The notes under the pieces: model-generated | Databases searched by the model: none | The model's input: only the letters and a program-made list of their open reading frames with translations | What the model was told of the DNA's origin: nothing | Assembly (NCBI RefSeq): GCF_025526975.1 | Contig: NW_026515680.1 | Location: 186,001-250,000 of the forward strand | DNA: 64,000 bases | Direction: 5' to 3' | Origin: Fimicolochytrium jonesii | Lineage: Eukaryota | Made by a program: the position numbers and the translations under genes | Part shown: piece after piece, positions 3,103 through 41,545 of the stretch | Layout of the letters: the number at the start of each line of letters is the position of its first letter | How positions within the stretch are numbered: position 1 is the stretch's first letter

Positions 3103-3896
3103 ATGTCCACCCCCTCCAAACGCCGCCTCATGCGCGACTTCAAGCGGCTCCAAACCGACCCCCCAGAAGGCGTCTCAGGCGCCCCTTGTCCCGACAACGT
3201 GCTTCTCTGGAACGCCGTGATTTTCGGGCCCGAGGAGACCCCGTTCGAGGACGGCACGTTTAAGTTGGCGTTGACGTTTGATGAGAGTTACCCGACGAAG
3301 CCGCCGCATGTGAAGTTTATTAGCAAGATGTTTCATCCGAATGTTTATGCGAATGGGGATTTGTGTTTGGATATACTGCAGAATAGGTGGTGAGTAGAGG
3401 GAGCGACGGCGGCGAGCGGTAGCGAGCCTGATTTGTGTAAGAGCCCGAGCGAAAGCGAGAGCGACCTGAGGCCGATTCCTCACGCGAGCCAAGCGAGCGG
3501 CTGGTGGAGGGAGGACGAACGCAGTGAGTGCGAGCGAAGCGAGTTCCTTACGCCAAAGGCGCAATCTCCATATTTACACGCGAGTTTCAACGAGCATTGG
3601 ACCCTTTGCGAGCGAAGCGAGCTCCGCCCACTGCCCACCGCCCCCAGCGACCGCATTCCTTAGTTGAGACATTCCAGTACGTAAACCCGTTCACTAACTG
3701 TGAAATCTCCCTCGTTCGCAAATGCAGGTCACCAACATACGACGTAGCAGCCATCCTCACATCGATCCAATCGCTTCTGCACGACCCGAACCCCAACAGC
3801 CCCGCCAACGCCGAAGCCGCGCGGTTGTTCCAAGAGAATAAGAAGGATTACAATAAGCGGGTTAGGGAGACTGTCGAGGAGTCTTGGCTGAATTAG
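3103..3896 (+). CDS. RAD6: Ubiquitin-conjugating enzyme E2 Rad6/Ubc2 (exons 3103-3389 and 3728-3896)
   Basis: [17 protein letters not shown]...[45 protein letters not shown] is near-invariant Rad6 with the catalytic Cys. GT-AG intron 3390-3727 restores the frame. Confidence 0.97.
3411..3622 (+). repeat. Intronic array of tandem-GA mini-hairpins (dispersed element copy, RAD6 intron)
   Basis: Seven related motifs, e.g. GGCGAGC-GGTA-GCGAGCC, ACGAAC-GCA-GTGAGT, GCGAGT-TTCA-ACGAGC and GCGAGC-GAA-GCGAGC. 3530-3564 matches the reverse complement of 33741-33776. Confidence 0.8.
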
Positions 3897-4673: not shown

Positions 4674-7654
4674 TCAACGATCCACCAAAACCGGCTTCCT
4701 CCGTCTCAACCCCTCCAACCCCACCTCCACACTCTGCACCCCTTCGATCCTCTTCCCCTCCGCCTGCTGCTCCTTCACGGCATTAGCATACCTCCCCAGG
4801 GCCCAGACCGGGAAATAGAACTTATAGTTCGGATACGCAATCATCGCATTGCGATTGAACACGCCCTCGATGCCCTCCTGGGCCCACGCGCCGGTCGGCA
4901 GCTGCCGCTGCATCAACAGCCGCACCCCGCGCTCCACCACCTCCCCCCCCGCGGCTCCCAGGGGGTACTTTGCGGCGAGGAGGGTCAGCACGGCCCAGGC
5001 GGTGTGCACGACCTGGCTGGTCTCGGCGGGGTGGTAGACGGCGGTCTCGGAGGACTTGTAGGTCTCACCCCAGCCTCCGTCCGTTTCCTGTTTCGCGACG
5101 AGGAACTCGCATGCGTTGCGGACGCGCGCGGACGAGTGGTAGGACTCGCGCGCGCAGGCGGCGAGACCCTCGACGGCGAACCAGGTCGCGTAGGTGAAGC
5201 AGATGGCCCAGCTTCCGAACCAGGATCCGTCCGGGTTCTGGGTGTTGCGGATGTACGCGACGCCCTGTGCGGTCGCGGCGGTGATCTCGGCGGCGCGGTA
5301 GTGGGCGTCGTGCGCGGCGAAGGCTTGGAGGCCGAGGAGGACCGCGGTGGTGCATTCCGGGTAGCTGTACTCGACCATGATGTCGCCGAAGACCTCGGCG
5401 GGGTTGATCTTCTCCAGCAGCGTTGGGGCCCGCCGCCGCTCGTACGAGGGGAACCCGCCGTCGGCGTTCTGCATGGGGAGGAGGATGTCGACGGCGTTGC
5501 GGAAGCGCGTGTCGGTGATCTTGGGGAAGGAGGACGAGGACATGTAGGGCAGGTTGTTCTGCATGTACAGCAGCGTCTTGAGCGCCTCCGCTGTGCAGTC
5601 CGACACGGTGTACCCCTGCATCCGCCGGCTGAACGGCCACGCGCCGTTCGTCTTGTCTCGGTAACAGCGGGTGTGGTTGTCGACGTTGTGCTGGATCTGC
5701 TGGCTGTCCAGGAAGCTGAACGCTTGCCGCATCATCGGCTCGAAGGCGGGCTCGAGGGCGAGCTGGGACTCGCAGGCGGCTTGGCAGAGGAAGGCGGTGT
5801 CCCAGACCTGGGACCCGTCGGTGCCGTTGAAGTGCATGCCTTGCGGGGAGAGCCAGATGTAGTCGGCGCAGCGGGAGAGGTGGGCCTGGAAGGAGGGGTG
5901 GGTGGGGCCGAGTTTGAAGTAGGTGCAGAGCATGTTCATGGGCTTGTTGACCTATGCGAATCATGGAGGGAGATGTTAGACCGGGGCGGATCGTGGGGCG
6001 GATATGATCCCCTGACAGGAACACAAACGTGCCTGTGTGTGTCACATACCGAAGCAAGATTCCCAAAAGATGTGTTCTTATCCTCCATCTCAAGCTGCCT
6101 CCACGCCTCATCAACCGCCCACTGCCTCACTTTGCGCGGGGCGATCTTCTCGTACAGCTTGCAAATCACTGGCAGGGGAGGGATAAGAGTTGAGAACCCG
6201 TGCTTGCCCATTCCTGGCGCCCCCTTCTCCCTCAAAAAAGAAGAAACTCACCATTCAACCCATCCAACACCCTCGTATGCGGATAAAACACCTCGGCCTC
6301 CGCAATGTTATTACACTGCGCATCCCAATCAATGCTCGCATACGGCTGCGCATACAGTTCCTCGCGCAGCTGTTCGAGCAGGGGTGTGATCTCGCCGCGG
6401 AGGCGTTGGCCGTAGATGAAGGACATGGGGAGGTAGACCATGCGCGTGTGGATCCACCAGCGGCCGGGGTGGATGGGGAGGGCGTAGGGGAGGAGCCTGA
6501 AGTGGGGGGGTGGGGATGGGTTAGGTAGATGTTGGTTTGAGGAGGAGGGGGGGGGTCAAAGGGCATTGTGTCATCACACATACCAGAGTTCAGGCGGAAC
6601 AGGGTTCATCCCCTCGTACTCATACACGCCCAACACGGCCAGCCAGAACTTGCCCCACGAGGGCACGCTGAGAGCGGTGCCGAGCCGGTGCAGCGTGGCG
6701 CGCGCTTTGATCATGGCCGGGTGGTCGCGGTCCACGCCGAGCAGGCGGCACGCGACGTAGTTGAGGGTGGTGCCAAAGACGGTCGAGACGCCTTCCGTGT
6801 GGCTGGCGGGGGTTATCAGACACGTGGCACGGTGAGTTCGGGGGCCCTTTTTAACATTCTCCCCCGCACATACGACAAGCATACGTACATTCCCCACCCG
6901 CCGTCCTCCTTACTCGCCATATTCAACAGGTACCGCACCATCTCGATCCGCGACGGTTCGTCGATCGTCTGCTTGCAGACATACATGGCGATGATGTATC
7001 CGGGGGTGAGGAAATGCGGGCCGCCATATGCGCCGGCGAAATGGCCGTCCTCGCATTGCAGCTTGCTGAAGAAGGTGAGACCGTTGCGCGCGGACTCGAG
7101 AGGGGTGCGTGCCGTGGGGAGGGTGGATACGTTCTGTTATCGGGGGAGGCGGACCAAAACGAAATGAGTATGAGTGCGCTGGACCGATGAATGAAAACGA
7201 CCCCTCCTACGGGATGTGGGACGGGCGCGGAGTATCGTATCAAGGACATCCTGCTGGGAATATCGAAACTTGGGCGGGAGAACCGACCCCAAGCAACCCT
7301 GCGCGTCACCGTCGCTCGGTCGCAGAACCCTCGAGCAACTCACACTTGCCCACTCCAACTCCTCCTGCCCCTCGCTTTGTCCATCGCATTCCTTCCTCGG
7401 GGAACTCACGTAACCCCCCCTCGATCGAAACTCAAACCCCCCCGCCCCACCCTTGTGCACAATCCCACCACCCCTCCATCCACTAAACCTACCATATCAA
7501 GATCCAGCCAATACCTATCAGCATGCGTCTGCGGCCACGCGCTCGCCGCGCGCTCATCTTCCAGGTAATGCCACGTCTGCCTGCCGTCCTCGCTGCGGAG
7601 CCGCCAGCGGGTGAGGTCGGTTGCGCGCAGGGGGGGTGGGTCTGACCTGCCCAT
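4674..7654 (-). CDS. ERG7: Oxidosqualene cyclase, lanosterol synthase type (multi-exon)
   Basis: N-terminal [15 protein letters not shown] repeats (QNADGGF, QNPDGSW, QETDGGW) and catalytic VSDCTAE. Thr in NGTDGSQ plus Q..V before SDCTAE are the lanosterol-type rather than cycloartenol-type (Y/H/I) residues. Confidence 0.95.
7278..7326 (-). repeat. Dispersed element fragment in ERG7 intron 1 (7134-7492)
   Basis: Minus strand CTGCGACCGAGCGACGGTGACGCGCAGGGTTGCTTGGGG aligns with BolA intron CTGCGACGAGCGAGGCGAGGCGCAGGGATGCTTGAGG (about 40915-40951) and with the NagD intron GCGCAGGGCTGCTTG. Confidence 0.65.
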
Positions 7655-8389
7655 TTGGTTTCGTCGCAGGGTTTGTTTTGCGATACTTGGAAGGTCGGAT
7701 ACCCGGCTCTGTGCGTCGCCTGGAGATGTGTTCAATTCAGTCCTGCGACTACGGGGGTTGTCTAGGGATGCAGTGCGAAAGTGCGAGGTGTGAGGGGTGA
7801 GGGGTCGGACTGAGTCGGGAGGGGCTTGGGATATAAAGGACTCCTCGTCTGCGACTTGCGTCTGCGGCTTGGGCGTGCATGGCGGGGATATGGATATGGT
7901 GTGGGGAACAAGGGCGAGGTGTGCTCTTCTTGCGAAAGTGCGTGGGCAGGAGGACATCGGGCCATCCATCGCGCGCGCTTCCCGTCAGTCCCTCTCTCAG
8001 CCAGTCCGCCGCAGTCCGTCAGGCGACTCAGGCCACAGGACGGAGGAGTCGCGTGACGGTTATCTGCGCACCGTGGGTCCGGATGGGAATCCACGCGGGT
8101 CCATCGACAAACCGGCGGTAACCACGCTGACCCAGACCCATTTAGCATACACACTCAAATGGGGTGCACAGCCACCTGCCCGTATTTGACAAGAGCATCA
8201 CCGAATGAAGCAACAGCAACCAGACCGCCTTCACTCTCTAATTATTCCCAGCCGAGGAAACAAACCCAATCCCCTTTCCGGTACCGGTATGAGTACCGGG
8301 GGGGGGGGGGGGGGGGGTATATTTATCGTCCTCAGAAGAGAAAAAACTCGTCAGGATCCTCCCCATCCCCACTCATCCCCGTCTACTCC

Positions 8390-18894: not shown

Positions 18895-19709
18895 ATCTAG
18901 AGAACAGGCCCGTAATAGTCCGTTCTCCCGGTGACTATATATTTTCTACATCTCTGTATCCAAAAACGAAAAACCTTTTGGTCCCAACCCCATTGTAACC
19001 TCCAACAAAGTGAGCCGCCGCGTTCGTCGCTGCACGGACCACCTCCGCACTGGTTGGGAGTCTTGGGACATGGGTGTCCTTGCTCGTTTAGGAAGTGGGT
19101 TCATGTCCCCAACAACGACCGCAATATGCACGGAAGTTGTCGAAATATGTCGCCTTGCTCGTACCGCCGGTTCTGGCAATTGTCCCACACTCCGGGTCGC
19201 TGGTCAGGCGCCCGCTGATTGTCATGTCATGGGAGCACCTGCTCGCCTCGCTTCTTCTCTCGTCGAGTGCACGCTCCTTCCCGCTGACCGTGAGAAGAGG
19301 CGAGGCGAGCAGGTGCTCCCATGATCTAGAGAACAGGCCCGTGATAGTCCGTGCTCCCAGTGACTATATATTTTCTACATCTCTGTATCCAAAAACGAAA
19401 AATGTTTTGGTCCCAACCCCGTTGTAACCTCCAATAAAGTGAGCCGCCGAGTTCGTCGCTGCACGGACCATCTCCGCACTGGTTGGGACACGGGTGTCCT
19501 TGCTCGTTTAGGAAGTGGGTTCATGTCCCCAACAACGACCGCAATATGCACGGAAGTTGTCGAAATATGTCGCCTTGCTAGTACCGCCGGTTCTGGCGAT
19601 TGTCCCGCACTCCGGGTCGCTGGTCAGGCGCCGGCTGATTGTCATGTCATGGGAGCACCTGCTCGCCTCGCTTCTTCTCACGGCCAGCGGGAAGGAGCGT
19701 GCACTCGAC
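18895..19709. repeat. About 360-bp direct duplication with an inverted 63-bp segment at the junction
   Basis: 18895-19259 matches 19324-19679 (offset 429 then 420, one 9-bp indel). 19262-19324 is the reverse complement of 19647-19709 with two mismatches. Confidence 0.95.
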
Positions 19710-28350: not shown

Positions 28351-29736
28351 ACTTGGGATATTTAATCCTGCTCTCTGCGGTTTTGACAGTTTGCACGTTT
28401 CTGACATTCTTTCCCTCACAGGGAAAGAGCTTTATCAGCTCAAGACGTTACGGGTGCGTAGACCTGAAGCTGAACATGCCAGGCCAACAAAATCTCCATC
28501 CAGAACGGGTATGGGCAATGGGCTATTTGACTGGGTTCTTTTGCAACGAGATGGTTTGGTTAGGTTTGCTTTCGATTTGATTTCCTTACAGCTCCGGTGG
28601 ACGCCGTCTCTTGATTTGTGTGATGCTCAAAAATTGCATGTAGCAAACTGCAATATTGCGAGGTGTTGGCTGTATAGAGAGCGACGATTAGGATTTGCCT
28701 TCAGATTATTGAACGAAGGCGCACTCTGCATCGCTATAACCGGAGAGAGCTAAGAAGCCACTTATGACGGTGGCATCTGTGAGGCAGCGAATAACCTCCG
28801 GTGGACCAGCCGGCCCAGAAAGCTCAGCAAGCGCATCCATTGGCCCATTGCATAAGTGGAAAGTAAGGCCACTACCCTTCCCTTATTTAGGCGTAGCGAT
28901 CATGTGTCCCGAGGGTTTGGGTTGACAGTGCTGCACGGTATAGTAATAGTGGGAGTAATGATGAGCGGCGTAGTGCTGTACTGTACTGTACGTATAGTAG
29001 TAGGTGTCTGCCTACTCACTCACGGGAGTTCAATATCTCCCGCATTATAGAAGCTCCAGGCACGAAATAAGCGTACTTTTTCCCACTGTACGGAAACACA
29101 TTGCACATACCATTGCATACTATCCACACCGCAAAGTCTATCCACATACACAATTAGAGCAAACCCCGCTTTGCAGCTACTGGCCCGGAGATTTACGTCC
29201 CTCAAGTAAGCTCCCACTCGCCCGCTGACTCGGGGCACCGCCTGCTTTTGCCAGCACACTATATAGAGACCCTGGGGTGTCCGCCACCCTTCTCGTTTCT
29301 TTCTCTTCACAACGAGACAACCCGGTAAAGACCCTCTGAATAGAGGCTCCATATTCATAGCACCAGAGCAGAACCGATACAGAGCAATTGAACCAAACAT
29401 ACAATCGAATTCGCCGAGTACACCGCAACAACACCGTACTATTTTACAGCAGAATAAGTGTCAGCACCAGCAGCGAGTAGACTCAGTCAGCAGCAGACGC
29501 TAGCAACAGTGTTGAAAGGGCGCTTTTCGTCTAGGTGAGTTTCTTTGGTCTGGAGGCGCTTTGGTGTGTTTGGTATGAGCGTGGTCGACCAAAGCGGCGG
29601 ACAGCACAGACGGCACCTGGCCCCGGAGCAAAGCTCTGTCCAGCTCCTTTTGGGCAGCATCAAAGAGGGAGATGCCCGTGATCTTGTCCGCATGGTGTAG
29701 CACTCGGAGCGCTTTGAAGATGCCCTCCTCGCAGTC

Positions 29737-29955
29737 GCCTTAGGCGGCTGCGACGGACCAGCGCACCGGAGGCCGCTGTGAAATAGAACATACACATCCG
29801 AAGAACTGCGTTCCTAGGTGCCTTTAACGGCTACGTTGGAACATCGTCACGAAAGCCGTTGTGAAATGGAACATGAACATTTGAAGAACGTTGCCTTAGG
29901 CGGCTGCACCGGATTATCGTCCCGAAAGACGTTGTGAAATGGGACTTGCACATTT
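29737..29955. repeat. Three degenerate tandem copies of an about 63-bp unit (spacing 83 and 73 bp)
   Basis: GCCTTAGGCGGCTGC...GYTGTGAAATRGRAC starts at 29737, 29820 and 29893. Confidence 0.75.
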
Positions 29956-30014
29956 GTAGAACCCGTCTGCTAACCACAGCGATTTTCGTATGGCGCATCC
30001 ATAGAAGGAACGAA

Positions 30015-32507: not shown

Positions 32508-34443
32508 CTACGCCTCCCTTGGGACAACCTCCCCCACCCCATTACAAACCACCCACGGCCGATACGCCTGACTCCTCACATCCTCGGGCCTGCTCACCCC
32601 GCTCATCACCAAGACGGGGTCGATCTCGGCGTACACACCGCTGAGAATATCGGTGTCCATGCGGTCGCCAATGATGCATGTTTCGTCTTTGGAGGTTCCG
32701 AGGATGGTGGCGGCGTAGCGGAGCATGAGGGAGGTGGGTTTGCCGAGGTAGAATGCCTAGGGGGGTAGGAGAGATGGAGTTGGTGGAGTTAGGGAGGGCA
32801 TACGGCGTTGAGGGATGCGGTTATGAAGCACACAGATTTCGCCACGGAACCTTACGGCCGGAAGCCAACTCGACCGCGGCACAAAACGCCCCAGTAGCCG
32901 GGGCGATCCCGCCCTCCGTCGGCCCATTGACGTCCGGGTTGGTCCCGATCAGTTTGGCGCCCTTGTACACCAGGTTGACCGCTTTCGAGATCTTGTCGAA
33001 GGTCTGGCTGCTGCCTTCGCCTATCACGACGTAATCCGGGTTCTGCAAAGATTCACATGTCAGGAACATCATACCCGTGCACGATATATCCCCCCAATCA
33101 CACCACTATGATACCACAACGTACCGTCTCATTCATACTGAACCCAACCTCATACAACGCATATATAAGCCCCGGCTCGCCAACAACATAAACCGTCCCG
33201 CCATTCGGTTTCTGGCTCTGCAGGAATTTGGCGGTCGCGATGGCCGAGGTGTAGAAATGGTCTTCGGTGACGGAGAGGCCGAGGCGGGCGAGCTTGAAGG
33301 AGAGCTCGCGAGGGGTTGGGGCGGAGTTGTTTGTCTGAGTAGGAGGGGTTAGCGGCGGGTGGCTGGGAGAGGGGGGAAAGCAAAGGGGGACTTACGAGGA
33401 AGAGGAACTTTTTGTCTTCTTTTTTGAGCCAGTGGATGAAATCTTTGACGCCGGGAAGGAGGACGTTGCCGTGGTAGATTACGCCGTCCATGTCGATGAT
33501 AAAGCCCTGCAATGCGAAGGGATGGATCAAGCGACGCGTAAATGACGGTGAAGTAATGGATGAAGGATTAGCAACGGAGGGCTCAGACATTGTTCCTCCA
33601 GGCCCGGTTGATGGTTGAACTGAAGCGATGGAACGCGATGGTTGAACGATCCCTGCTCGAGCGGCTGGTGACGGACCTCGTTCCGTCCGCCAAAGATCAA
33701 CGCTCGCCGGAGCTCCTTAAGAACTGCAGTGGGCATATTGTTGCACCTTTGGCGCAACGGAACTCGCTTCGCTCGCGAAGGCGGTCGCCCCTGGTCGCCC
33801 TTGCCACCGCTAGGGCACCGAGAAGAGAACCCAATTCAAGCAGCCCTGCGCCCGCTCATGCTCAAGCCTCGTTCCGCCGTCCCCCATAACTTCCCACCCC
33901 AACCCTCGCACACACCTTCTTGTTCTGGATGACCTTCAACCTAGCCTGGTACTCGTCGGCGGACAGTTCCGACAACTGACATAACTCCTTCGCAGTGAAG
34001 TGCTGGAGGGACTTTGCAGTGAGGTCTGAGAGGGCGGTGGAGCTGAGGTGGGCGAGGTCTGCCATTGTTCCTGTGAATTGTTTCTTATGTGTGCGTGAGT
34101 GTTGTGATGAAGACGATGGCGAGCGATGGCGTTTGGAGGGCTGATGGCCGGTTTGAGGTGTGCTGCTGCTCGAAGCCAAGCCCAAGCCCAAGTGTAACGC
34201 GTTTGGGTCGCCCTCCGAGCCGTCCCAGCCGGCGTGTTTGTTGTTCAGGTGGCCGCGGAGCGTCGTGTTGCCCGTGCCCACGCTGTAAAGCCCTCCGCAC
34301 CACCGGCACTCTCGCTTCTCCGGGTTGCCCGCTGCCACCGGAAAGTTGAGCTCCATTAGGCGTTTGATTCGGCCGTCGTGGACTCGGGGTGGTCGGCGGA
34401 CCGCTTCTTGCGTCGTCGTGGTGGCATTGCTGGGGTCCGCCAT
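32508..34443 (-). CDS. BED zinc finger fused to a NagD-like HAD-IIA phosphatase (5 exons)
   Basis: Exon 1 (34443-33916) has CRWC...GNTTLRGHLNNKH. Phase-0 intron 33915-33507 joins IQNKK|GFIIDMDGVIY. Then FL|TNNS, TNPD, GKP and IIGDRMDTDI.G (HAD motifs I-IV). Confidence 0.8.
33741..33851 (-). repeat. Dispersed element copy in BED-NagD intron 1
   Basis: Minus strand GCGCAGGGCTGCTTG...GACCAGGGGCGACCGCCTTCGCGAGCGAAGCGAGTTCCGTTGCGCCAAAGGTGCAA shares blocks with the RAD6, BolA and ERG7 introns. Confidence 0.8.
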
Positions 34444-37050: not shown

Positions 37051-37472
37051 TGGGTTGATGGGGGGGGGGGGGGGGGGGGCGGTTCGATGGCCCTAGAGAT
37101 ATGGGTTGTCACACTACCGTACGGTACACTGGGTAGGATATCACACAATGCAGAGGTTGAGTGTACGGCAGCCTTTGGAACGGGTCGTGATATACATTCT
37201 TCTTCCAGCAGGGCGCATATCATTCCTAGCAGAGGGTTATCGAAATAACGCGTCGCCGCGTGACTTGTCCGAAACACTCGGAAAGTCCGAAAGAGCAGGT
37301 TTGAGCCAATGCACTCATTACTGCTACGGCGCTGCATAACAAACACCCACTGCACGTCCGCTGGCCTCACAAGTCTTCCTTAGCCCCTACAAAACCCAGC
37401 CGCCTCGCTCATTACGCTGCTGAATTGTCTCACTTGAAATTTTGCTACGTTGGCAGGTCAGGCCACAGCACA

Positions 37473-39168: not shown

Positions 39169-39715
39169 GGGGTGGTATCGTATGGAATGGATGGACATGC
39201 AGCCGGCGAGGGGGGACTGGGCGGACAGACGAGCGGGTAGATTCGAAGTTTCCCCGGTGGCATCAGCATGGCGTATTGGACGGGAAACCACCCCTCCCTC
39301 ACATTTGTCGCGGCGGCGTATGTTCAACAGCGCTCTCAGTAACGTCATAGCCCCCTGCATTCGACGATATTCATCGCGGCGCCGTATGTCCTGTGATAGT
39401 ACTCCCCTTTCCGATAGTTTGTAGCATATAGATTAATAGAAACATGGAAGATAGACCCGCCAGTGTACGGCGCGGAGATCATCAAAAGGAAAGGTCCTAC
39501 GAATGATCTGTTCAATGTCCCACAACGAATAGCACCGCATCGTCCCATCCCTCCGACATTGGAGTCCAGCGATCCGACGCATCGCTCTTCACATCCATCA
39601 TGTGCCACAGTCGACCTTCCCTCTCGGTGGCATCCACCGAACGGGGAATACTGCCTCGAGACGACCGCGTCCACGCCGACAAGCCAGATGACAGTCCTCC
39701 TAAACACTCCTCTCT

Positions 39716-39934
39716 CTGAGCGACAGCGAGCGCGAGCGGAGGAAGCCGCGCTGCAGGTGCAAGTAAATGTGAGCGACAGCGAACGGTCGTCGTCATTACT
39801 CGTTCGACTATCAAACCATCCCTTGCCCGTCGTTCCCATCCACCCACCCAATCATCCGTCGCCCGTTCGTGTGGATGTATTCAAGGTTGGAGCCGGTGTG
39901 AACCAATGACCATTGTAATGAGCGACAGCGAACA
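39716..39934 (+). repeat. Orphan copy of the GA-hairpin element between DCC1 and BolA
   Basis: 39731-39790 CGCGAGCGGAGGAAGCCGCGCTGCAGGTGCAAGTAAATGTGAGCGACAGCGAACGGTCGT aligns with BolA intron 41031-41085. TGAGC-GACA-GCGAR occurs three times. Confidence 0.7.
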
Positions 39935-40576: not shown

Positions 40577-41545
40577 ATGACCACCCTCCGCCTCCCCTCT
40601 CTCTTGCGCCACGTCGCCTTCCCGCGCACACCCGTCATTTCCAGGTCTTTTGCGACGAAACCCGCAACAATGGCAGGTCCAGTCTACTCGAGCATCGAAA
40701 CCAAGCTGACGGAGGCACTACAGCCGACTGTTCTGGAGATTGTAGACGAGAGCTATAAGCATGCCGGTCATGCTGCTATGAAGGGTTTGAAGCCAGTTGA
40801 AACGCACTTCAGGTGGGAATAGCGGAGTGAACGAGCAGGGAATTGGTTCGGTCTGGGAGACCGAGCGTAGGGGCGGTCGACCAGAGGGAACGCCTTCGCG
40901 AGCGAAGCGAGCGACTGCGACGAGCGAGGCGAGGCGCAGGGATGCTTGAGGCAGGCGAGCCATGAGCCGAGCCCTGGTTCGGCGGTCTGGAAAACCGAGC
41001 GTCAATGAGGTCGACCAGAGCGAACGCCTACGCGAGCGAAGCGGCGCCGCAGGCGCAATACCTGTGAGTAATAGCGAACGGTCGTTCTTAAGCGATGGCG
41101 GGCCCTTATGTGAGCGAAAGCGAACGATCGTTTCTTACTGGTTTTTAGTGATCATCGGTGGGTTGATGATTGAATGTCGATGGTTGGATGGGTTGATGTG
41201 TGGCTTATGGTTGATAGGTCGATGGGTGGTGGATGGATGACGGTTGCTGGGTCGACGGGTTGGTCGATGGTCGGTGGGTTGATGGTCAATGGTTGACTGT
41301 TAACGCATGTTTCGTCCCGTGGGATATAGGGTAACGGCCGTTTCGTCAAAGTTCGAAGGCAAGCGTCTCGTACAAAGGCATCAGGTACAACTAGCGACGC
41401 TCTCTTTTTCATCAAAGTATTGTCAACTGATACAGCTATATATGTCGATAAACAGCTAGTGTACGAAATCTTGGGACAGGAGCTGAAGGAGGGTTTGCAT
41501 GCGCTGTCGTTGTCGACAAAGACGCCTGAGGAGTATCAGAAGTGA
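40577..41545 (+). CDS. BolA-family protein (BolA1/Bol1-like) with probable mitochondrial presequence; exons 40577-40812, 41330-41384, about 41456-41545
   Basis: IETKLTEALQPTVLEIVDESYKHAGH...ETHFR|VTAVSSKFEGKRLVQRHQ|LVYEILGQELKEGLHALSLSTKTPEE. Confidence 0.93.
40870..41130 (+). repeat. Two tandem copies of the dispersed GA-hairpin element in BolA intron 1 (40813-41329)
   Basis: GGTCGACCAGAG[G/C]GAACGCCT[T/A]CGCGAGCGAAGC at about 40875 and 41009. Hairpins GTGAGT-AATA-GCGAAC and GTGAGC-GAAA-GCGAAC. Followed by about 150 bp of degenerate GGTYGAT repeats. Confidence 0.85.

Follow-up and report, generated by a model that had tools for sequence, protein, structure and literature searches.

The RAD6 gene of the chytrid fungus Fimicolochytrium jonesii is interrupted by an intron that carries a series of short hairpins with tandem G.A pairs (GA hairpins). 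Do these hairpins serve RAD6, or are they part of something that is also present elsewhere? The window analyzed here is a 64-kb stretch of F. jonesii nuclear DNA that contains ordinary housekeeping genes. The features under discussion are listed in Table 1.

Table 1. RAD6 gene model, hairpins of the RAD6 intron, and copies of the repeat family in the 64-kb window
Feature	Position	Strand	Basis
RAD6 (E2 ubiquitin-conjugating enzyme) exon 1	3103..3389	+	UQ_con Pfam match, 96% identity
RAD6 intron, 338 nt, GT-AG, phase 2 in Trp codon	3390..3727	+	predicted from reading frame
RAD6 exon 2	3728..3896	+	splice model, Pfam
GA hairpin 1, loop GGTA, 3 outer pairs	3411..3428	+	
GA hairpin 2 (module A) with GCGAAAGC mini-hairpin core; C.A mismatch beyond its single outer pair	3444..3461	+	
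GA hairpin 3 (module C), loop now CAA, GNA lost	3483..3499	+	
GA hairpin 4, loop GCA, two G-C to A-T swaps	3515..3529	+	
GA hairpin 5 (module C), GCGAAGC core, outer G.T	3530..3544	+	
Module D, plain stem, AAA triloop; absent from the list of the initial annotation	3549..3563	+	
GA hairpin 6, loop TTCA, inner C-G to T-A swap	3580..3595	+	
GA hairpin 7 (module C), GCGAAGC core	3608..3622	+	
RAD6 intron copy: modules A-B-C (3441-3503), C-D (3530-3564), further C (3603-3626)	3410..3626	+	blastn, alignments
Weak 39-bp fragment in intron 1 (7134-7492, 359 nt) of squalene/oxidosqualene cyclase gene, sense	7287..7325	-	
Copy in intron 1 (33507-33915, 409 nt) of HAD-family phosphatase gene, sense	33718..33877	-	
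Partial copy between Dcc1 and BolA, modules C-D-E, three GACA-loop GA hairpins	39715..39934	+	
Two tandem copies and two module E hairpins in BolA intron 1 (40813-41329, 517 nt)	40828..41132	+	

The RAD6 Intron and Its Hairpins

Exon 1 of RAD6 is 96% identical to its counterparts in Rhizophlyctis and Powellomyces and 88-94% identical to those of other chytrids. The predicted splice of 3390-3727 yields a 151-aa RAD6, and its donor is the only one that both preserves the conserved Trp and gives 151 aa. The initial annotation of this DNA placed seven hairpin motifs between 3411 and 3622, and all seven are present at their coordinates on the plus strand, inside the intron. Five of them (3411, 3483, 3515, 3580, and 3608) have two outer and two inner Watson-Crick pairs. 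Motif 3530 requires one G.T pair, motif 3446 has a single outer pair, and hairpin 4 (3515..3529) is the weakest of the motifs in energy models.

A strict search of the plus strand returned nine matches in the 64 kb, five of which lie within the 212-base RAD6 region. The intron holds five motifs by the strict criterion and seven by a relaxed one. The annotation had called for a shuffle control. In intron shuffles that preserve 2-, 3-, 4-, or 5-mers, the observed count was reached in 0 of 2000 at each k. The proposed strand specificity also stands, with 0 matches on the opposite strand of the RAD6 intron, and the related motif reported from the BolA intron (GTGAGC-GAAA-GCGAAC) is present at 41110. 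Standard inverted-repeat finders were said to miss such motifs, and the inverted-repeat finder used here did miss 7/7 hairpins. TRF, at a score of 40, found no tandem array in 3390-3727, and a (CGAG)n microsatellite was rejected on this basis.

A Dispersed Family of Collinear Modules

In a self-comparison of the window, the RAD6 motifs proved to be modules of a composite repeat that can be aligned over up to ~160 bp. Copies are found at four to five unlinked loci. Module A is a GA hairpin with a 4-nt loop; module B, an irregular linker hairpin; module C, the GCGAAGC GA hairpin; module D, a plain stem with an AAA (RAD6, HAD) or GCA (BolA) triloop; and module E, a GA hairpin in which the outer C-G pair is replaced by T-A. 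The order of the modules is collinear among copies at loci up to 37 kb apart.

The copies in RAD6, BolA (two), the HAD phosphatase gene, and the 39.7-kb spacer are 73-92% identical over 36-73 bp. RAD6 3530-3564 is 92% identical to the HAD-phosphatase intron over 36 bp, and blastn of the RAD6 copy against the HAD and BolA copies gives E values from 6e-8 to 0.02. The two copies in BolA intron 1 have a period of 134 and are 85% identical to each other over 61 bp, 79% identical to HAD over 61 bp, and 73% identical to RAD6 3441-3503 over 63 bp. Positions 39718-39790 match BolA copy 2 (75% over 73 bp, blastn E 3e-7). The sterol-cyclase fragment (7287..7325) is 85% identical to BolA with a blastn E of 2e-4 and has 0 intact GA hairpins. 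Hairpins that combine a GC/CC stem, a GNA/GNNA loop, and tandem GA were searched for on both strands (128 kb), and 10/10 fall inside four family loci. A profile search of the window found no further copies outside the five loci at E<1 (best decoy E 0.02).

The introns that bear the element are 338-517 nt long, whereas five introns without it in these genes measure 61-87 nt. Automatic intron picking, which is unreliable without homology, also suggested motif-free introns of ~190 nt; an element is therefore not present in every long intron. In the 3' half of BolA intron 1, positions 41150-41301 are occupied by a separate, degenerate G/T-rich tandem repeat with periods of 15-26. The introns of the RAD6, sterol cyclase, mitochondrial carrier, and ABC transporter genes have G-rich 5' halves and C-rich 3' halves, an arrangement that could zip the splice sites together.

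Pairing and Decay of the Hairpins

The annotation held that the GA dinucleotides never change. Homologous copies contradict this and decay individually: both GA are intact in 12 of the 14 tabulated module copies, and in two gapped copies outside that table (module C of BolA copy 2 and of the 39.7-kb copy) the second GA is also lost. The apparent invariance is a matter of ascertainment. The stem cells at homologous positions (n=70) comprise 52 Watson-Crick pairs, 9 G.T pairs, and 9 mismatches. With 9/70 cells mismatched and 73-92% of the sequence shared among copies, the proposal that structure rather than sequence is conserved is not supported.

Covariation of the flanking pairs survives in part. 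Fully paired variants with non-consensus arms exceed chance, with 4 observed across the five loci against shuffle means of 0.15-0.22 (0/600 shuffles). In RAD6, covariants 3515 and 3580 lack an aligned homologue at any other locus, so their covariation is between paralogous modules. RAD6 alone has two fully paired variants, a number that is reached in 1-3 of 600 shuffles. Two of the four variants are identical, which leaves ~3 independent events plus one swap in module A. The paired changes are nearly all double transitions, so the pair changes compensate automatically. If the consensus decayed at random, all pairs would survive with P 0.02-0.06 after two changes and 0.002-0.012 after four. Given these low probabilities and the excess of paired variants, hairpin pairing was at some stage subject to selection or correction, although the independent events are few.

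Single-Stranded DNA or RNA

Tandem sheared G.A pairs follow a general YGAR rule, with Y-GA-R on both arms and Watson-Crick pairs beside them. In the chytrid hairpins, 28/28 arms are YGAR, and 17/28 are CGAG; YGAR is kept automatically because the changes are transitions. The loops of the 14 GA hairpins include six triloops, 11 of the loops close with G..A, and 14/14 end in A. Only two of the eight tetraloops match GNRA, and an RNA GNRA platform was rejected for that reason. The loops fit DNA mini-hairpins rather than RNA GNRA.

In kink-turns and SECIS elements, tandem G.A pairs adjoin a bulge of 3 nt or form the base of an extended helix II. The chytrid motifs are symmetric 2x2 loops over two-pair stems with no Rfam match, and kink-turn, box C/D, and SECIS were rejected. 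An Rfam search of the 64 kb gave no match at the gathering score, and a second Rfam search had a single match, with an E of 4.3, outside the RAD6 intron.

The annotation had also stated that the parts are known stable motifs. This agrees with the accessible text of two papers, which describe the GCGAAGC/GCGAAAGC mini-hairpins (PMC13037366) and the CGAG sheared-G.A block (PMC10085684). In the portion of PMC13037366 that is available, only GNA triloops give DNA mini-hairpins. High melting points and resistance to nucleases are marks of DNA mini-hairpins. The DNA forms of GCGAAGC and GCGAAAGC have melting points of ~76 C and that of GCGACAGC is 72 C, compared to 39 C for the RNA form of GCGAAAGC (PMC13037366). 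CGAG/CGAG in DNA hairpins forms two sheared G.A pairs by NMR (PMC10085684). The DNA mini-hairpin rule, a two-pair stem of GC/GC or CC/GG with a GNA/GNNA loop, is followed by 4/7 RAD6 motifs (3411, 3446, 3530, and 3608) and broken by 3483, 3515, and 3580; the GGTA loop of 3411 was counted as GNNA and is absent from the table in the available part of PMC13037366. According to the same text, the stability of mini-hairpins is not captured by conventional models, so the energy computation is undecided between DNA and RNA. The hairpins are predicted to fold as single-stranded DNA (ssDNA).

A Possible Role for the Host Genes

The hairpins might instead be a host element, in which a hairpin-bound protein on first-intron pre-mRNA or on the displaced DNA strand tunes the splicing or expression of a set of genes. 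The placement of the copies agrees with this proposal. All four intronic copies are in the sense orientation and all four are in first introns (exon joins predicted from open frames), although 4/4 in sense orientation gives only P=0.125, two-sided. The RAD6 intron has more intact hairpins than any other family locus. With RNA parameters, the proposed fold is the minimum in 4/7 isolated motifs, compared to 2/7 with ViennaRNA DNA parameters, and the sense motifs are 2-3 kcal/mol better than the antisense. Set against this advantage of isolated motifs, the region as RNA gains no stability over shuffles (z +0.98), and when the whole RAD6 intron is folded as RNA, the probabilities of the inner pairs are 0.00-0.33. 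The proposal is also at odds with loops that are not of the RNA type, the lack of an Rfam match, the decay of the copies, and host genes that are functionally unrelated.

RAD6 loci from metagenomes (n=80) point the same way. An intron at the site of 3390-3727 was found in 0/80 and the core motif in 0/80, in a sample where many loci are transcripts, 18 have other introns and are therefore genomic, and known close relatives are not included. The intron site is uninterrupted in 75/80, and 5/80 have an intron 3 or ~10 nt upstream. The closest locus (L140, 92%) is intronless. A host element of this kind is unlikely.

The GA hairpins are parts of a dispersed repeat with nothing peculiar to RAD6, and a RAD6-specific function is unnecessary. 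A RAD6-specific RNA signal is likely not what they represent, and the hairpin family is apparently uninformative on RAD6 regulation. The annotation had suggested a binding platform in pre-mRNA or ssDNA. The pre-mRNA and RAD6 part of this suggestion is disfavored by the rarity of GNRA, the z score, and the dispersal of the copies, and ssDNA is the more probable of the two alternatives, a trait of the repeat itself and not of its host gene.

A Proposed Non-Autonomous Element Copied in Trans

The best explanation of the family, with a probability of roughly 0.55, is a decaying non-autonomous element made of ssDNA mini-hairpins and copied by a hairpin-reading enzyme in trans. The mini-hairpins are predicted to form on a single DNA strand, where a nuclease or transposase that binds hairpins would recognize them. 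Ancestral selection would have favored hairpins that let a single-stranded intermediate be recognized or protected, and the pair swaps between modules would be explained by this selection. Introns and spacers tolerate such copies and may be where they entered or where they persist; local tandem duplication and then drift would have followed. The sense polarity in first introns could reflect entry into the displaced non-template strand or, alternatively, selection against the pyrimidine-rich antisense orientation. The trans-acting enzyme is inferred, and so are an ssDNA intermediate and the reason for the sense bias. The one-strand polarity is itself observed: an opposite-strand GA hairpin, and with it the inverted doublet, is absent at every family locus.

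Neither a mobilizing gene nor element ends were found in the window. Among its 489 ORFs of at least 70 aa, 0 belong to transposase, nuclease, HUH, GIY-YIG, or TnpA-REP (Y1 HUH) families, and tblastn of five short GIY-YIG proteins against the window gave no match at E<=1. Termini, terminal inverted repeats (TIRs), and a convincing target-site duplication (TSD) were not found in its four to five decayed copies. A shared 7-mer inverted repeat at the ends of the loci is absent in 4/4, and the one 11-nt inverted pair in the RAD6 copy is internal and about at chance level. The HAD copy is flanked near its homology limits by a perfect 10-bp direct repeat (33676-33685 and 33867-33876), with an 11-bp repeat also nearby. 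The 10-bp repeat could be a TSD, a terminal repeat, or chance.

Miniature elements of the MITE type are recognized by terminal inverted repeats and target-site duplication. A MITE was rejected, since neither a TIR nor a firm TSD was found at the loci. In introners, similarity extends to both splice sites. An introner or introner-like element was rejected, since the similarity among copies is internal only and the intron ends are unrelated.

The same family might have arisen with no enzyme at all. (CGAG)-type seeds would fold back via sheared G.A pairs, slippage and template switching would amplify them, and ectopic gene conversion would carry them from one purine-rich first intron to another. 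This is a possible alternative, though a less probable one. CGAG repeats self-pair without further design (PMC10085684, as far as its accessible text goes), and CGAG makes up the majority of the chytrid arms given above. The local tandem duplications in the family, with periods of 134 and 46, fit such a process, as do the predominance of transitions among the paired changes, the lack of termini and enzyme in the window, and the recurrence of the hairpin vocabulary in unrelated replicons described below. It is harder to reconcile with the missing TRF array in the RAD6 intron at score 40, with the rarity at which random decay preserves all pairs, and with the non-CGAG modules B and D and a module order that is common to distant loci. 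An element copied in trans is the preferred reading.

Similar Hairpins in Viruses, Bacteria, and Archaea

The 14-base core of the hairpins is found in at least 130 stretches of IMG/VR. Companion GA hairpins lie on the same strand as the core more often than on the opposite strand (41 vs 8 among the IMG/VR matches listed, with related contigs uncollapsed, and 15 vs 1 in a second set). Among the same matches, again with related contigs uncollapsed, GA/GA occurs 49 times versus 9-16 for control dinucleotides (~3-5x) and 25 for AA/TT. One phage locus in IMG/VR (L004) has both pair-swapped arm variants of the chytrid. Module C followed by module D is present in 46 GTDB stretches and in two viral ones, mostly between unrelated genes. 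In four prokaryotic genomes, all of which were selected for holding the motif, the core is strongly enriched in one, a bacterium (485 vs 73 control), mildly enriched in another (109 vs 70), and unenriched in two.

An 18-mer that is common to RAD6 and HAD is intergenic in eight IMG/VR contigs of ~3 kb and in one 179-kb phage. The ~3-kb contigs (L001-L003 and L005-L009) are related and have two divergent ORFs, with the 18-base hairpin in the spacer. One may ask whether the chytrid copies are relics of a non-coding origin region from a small ssDNA virus or plasmid, captured repeatedly by the host genome. The intergenic 18-mer fits such an origin, and mini-hairpins mark ssDNA priming sites, according to the available text of PMC13037366. 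The viral likeness ends after ~20 bases, a viral or Rep ORF was not found near any copy among window ORFs of at least 70 aa, the 30-odd-base family pattern is found in 0 stretches of metagenome contigs, and family-specific patterns have two unrelated-looking matches each in IMG/VR. Viral relics are highly improbable.

Other parallels are with small GIY-YIG nucleases. The core lies within 100 bp of 3/5 short GIY-YIG frames and 0/6 long ones. One bacterial locus (L278) has a small GIY-YIG gene with nine copies of the core around it, arranged in inverted doublets that are CGTCA-led. Repeats around a small GIY-YIG gene are the published arrangement of Ssn nucleases, which cut one strand of ssDNA and ignore dsDNA and RNA (PMC11893778, accessible text). 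A haloarchaeon (L270, G003) has a 101-aa GIY-YIG frame, and the core of a GA hairpin lies 46 bp away from the match, a hint that an Ssn-like pairing also exists in archaea. NCBIfam named 0/5 of the short GIY-YIG fragments. In an actinobacterial MAG (L227, L246, L247, L254, and L265) and in L234 and L252, a ~130-bp composite repeat with GA and GNA hairpins is found between unrelated genes without a CGTCA tag, and this is the closest prokaryotic analogue in layout.

The core matches in prokaryotes and viruses are accompanied by 143 long ORFs, of which 35 were set aside because of their size or because the match was probably a chance one in coding sequence. Pfam on the other 108, all of at least 110 aa and thus above the size of small GIY-YIG frames, returned unrelated housekeeping genes with no recurrent mobilizer. 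Profile matches to the prokaryotic and viral loci cover at most ~70 positions at E>=4e-5, and blastn of the RAD6 intron against plasmids and phages gave fragments at E>=1 only. The similarity ends at the hairpin vocabulary, and the likeness between the chytrid and the prokaryotic or viral hairpins may be convergent.

Relation to Known Systems

Prokaryotes are known to have dedicated nucleases that recognize hairpin repeats in the form of ssDNA. The chytrid family resembles the Ssn/NTS/SRM system, as described in the accessible text of PMC11893778, in its many-copy, strand-specific short hairpin repeats with GNA-type loops. The GC-GA-GC-GAA-GC-GA core of the bacterial CGTCA-led repeat beside the GIY-YIG gene is identical to that of the chytrid. 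In contrast to Ssn/SRM, the chytrid copies lack the CGTC/GTCA tag, have no GIY-YIG gene in the window, and are one-strand chains of four to six different hairpins in spliceosomal introns. REP and SRM tags together (CGTC, GTCA, and GT(A/G)G) were found in the 8 bases upstream of 0/22 hairpins. Because the chytrid family has the core without the tags or flanks, it likely works like Ssn/SRM repeats, by analogy, without being a member.

REP/BIME/REPIN repeats with TnpA-REP (RAYT), along with IS200/IS605 ends, share short non-coding hairpin repeats arranged in mosaics, and the spread of REP-type repeats is attributed to an enzyme that acts in trans on ssDNA (PMC6006769, in its available part). The chytrid repeats differ in that they lack the GT(A/G)G hairpin foot, have neither inverted doublets nor a Y1 enzyme in the window, and are eukaryotic and nuclear. 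A bolder form of the preferred reading makes the family a eukaryotic nuclear counterpart of REP/SRM, a mosaic of G.A-zipped GNA mini-hairpins that a chytrid HUH or Ssn-like enzyme would recognize as ssDNA and insert into the transcription-displaced strand of first introns, possibly to thousands of copies, a figure extrapolated from four to five loci per 64 kb. This form is rather doubtful.

Helitron termini follow the pattern TC...CTRR; short direct repeats at the termini are the other form in this group, and a target dinucleotide is also characteristic. Non-autonomous Helitrons and Replitrons, which are eukaryotic HUH transposons, are copied and pasted through ssDNA intermediates, have hairpins near their ends, and often have no TSD (PMC10288648, accessible text). 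The chytrid unit is much shorter than these and has hairpins throughout, and defined termini or a target motif were not found in its four to five decayed copies. Organellar double-hairpin elements and the short palindromic repeats of fungi and algae are small, GC-rich, dispersed hairpins, for which we know of no mobilizer. The chytrid copies are nuclear and intronic and have tandem G.A blocks, and they are set apart from the organellar double-hairpin elements by description only.

The structural unit and the prokaryotic repeats that use it are already known. The GCGN(N)AGC mini-hairpins (PMC13037366) and CGAG blocks (PMC10085684) are the same unit as in the chytrid; in their accessible text, these papers deal with single oligos, phage and plasmid origins, and one human promoter repeat, whereas the chytrid hairpins form a dispersed intronic family. 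Literal-word matching in the open-access literature found no paper that describes a family of this type from the nuclear introns of chytrids. If the preferred reading is true, a nuclear G.A-zipped GNA family would point to very small mobile elements of eukaryotes that form a class not yet described, to a source of intron lengthening in chytrids, and perhaps to a new sequence-specific ssDNA enzyme. Even without an enzyme, the family represents a repeat design that is overlooked by inverted-repeat and tandem-repeat finders and that recurs in viruses, bacteria, archaea, and fungi.

Other Features of the Window

Several other features were observed in the window. Positions 18895-19709, between the ABC transporter and hydrolase genes, contain a direct duplication of ~370 bp that is 93% identical (18895-19262 and 19324-19682). 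Its units are separated by an inverted copy of their own end, with 63-nt arms that are 97% identical (19262-19324 and 19647-19709). This layout resembles the outcome of a template-switch duplication, or else a small element with TIRs. At 29734-29962, three degenerate, non-coding tandem units of ~78-83 bp are 70-74% identical and were missed by TRF. One tRNA-Tyr(GTA) gene of 95 nt, which probably contains an intron, is located at 28955-29049 and is unrelated to the hairpin family. Poly-G runs of ~20 bases occur at 540-610, 8298-8317, and 37060-37079.
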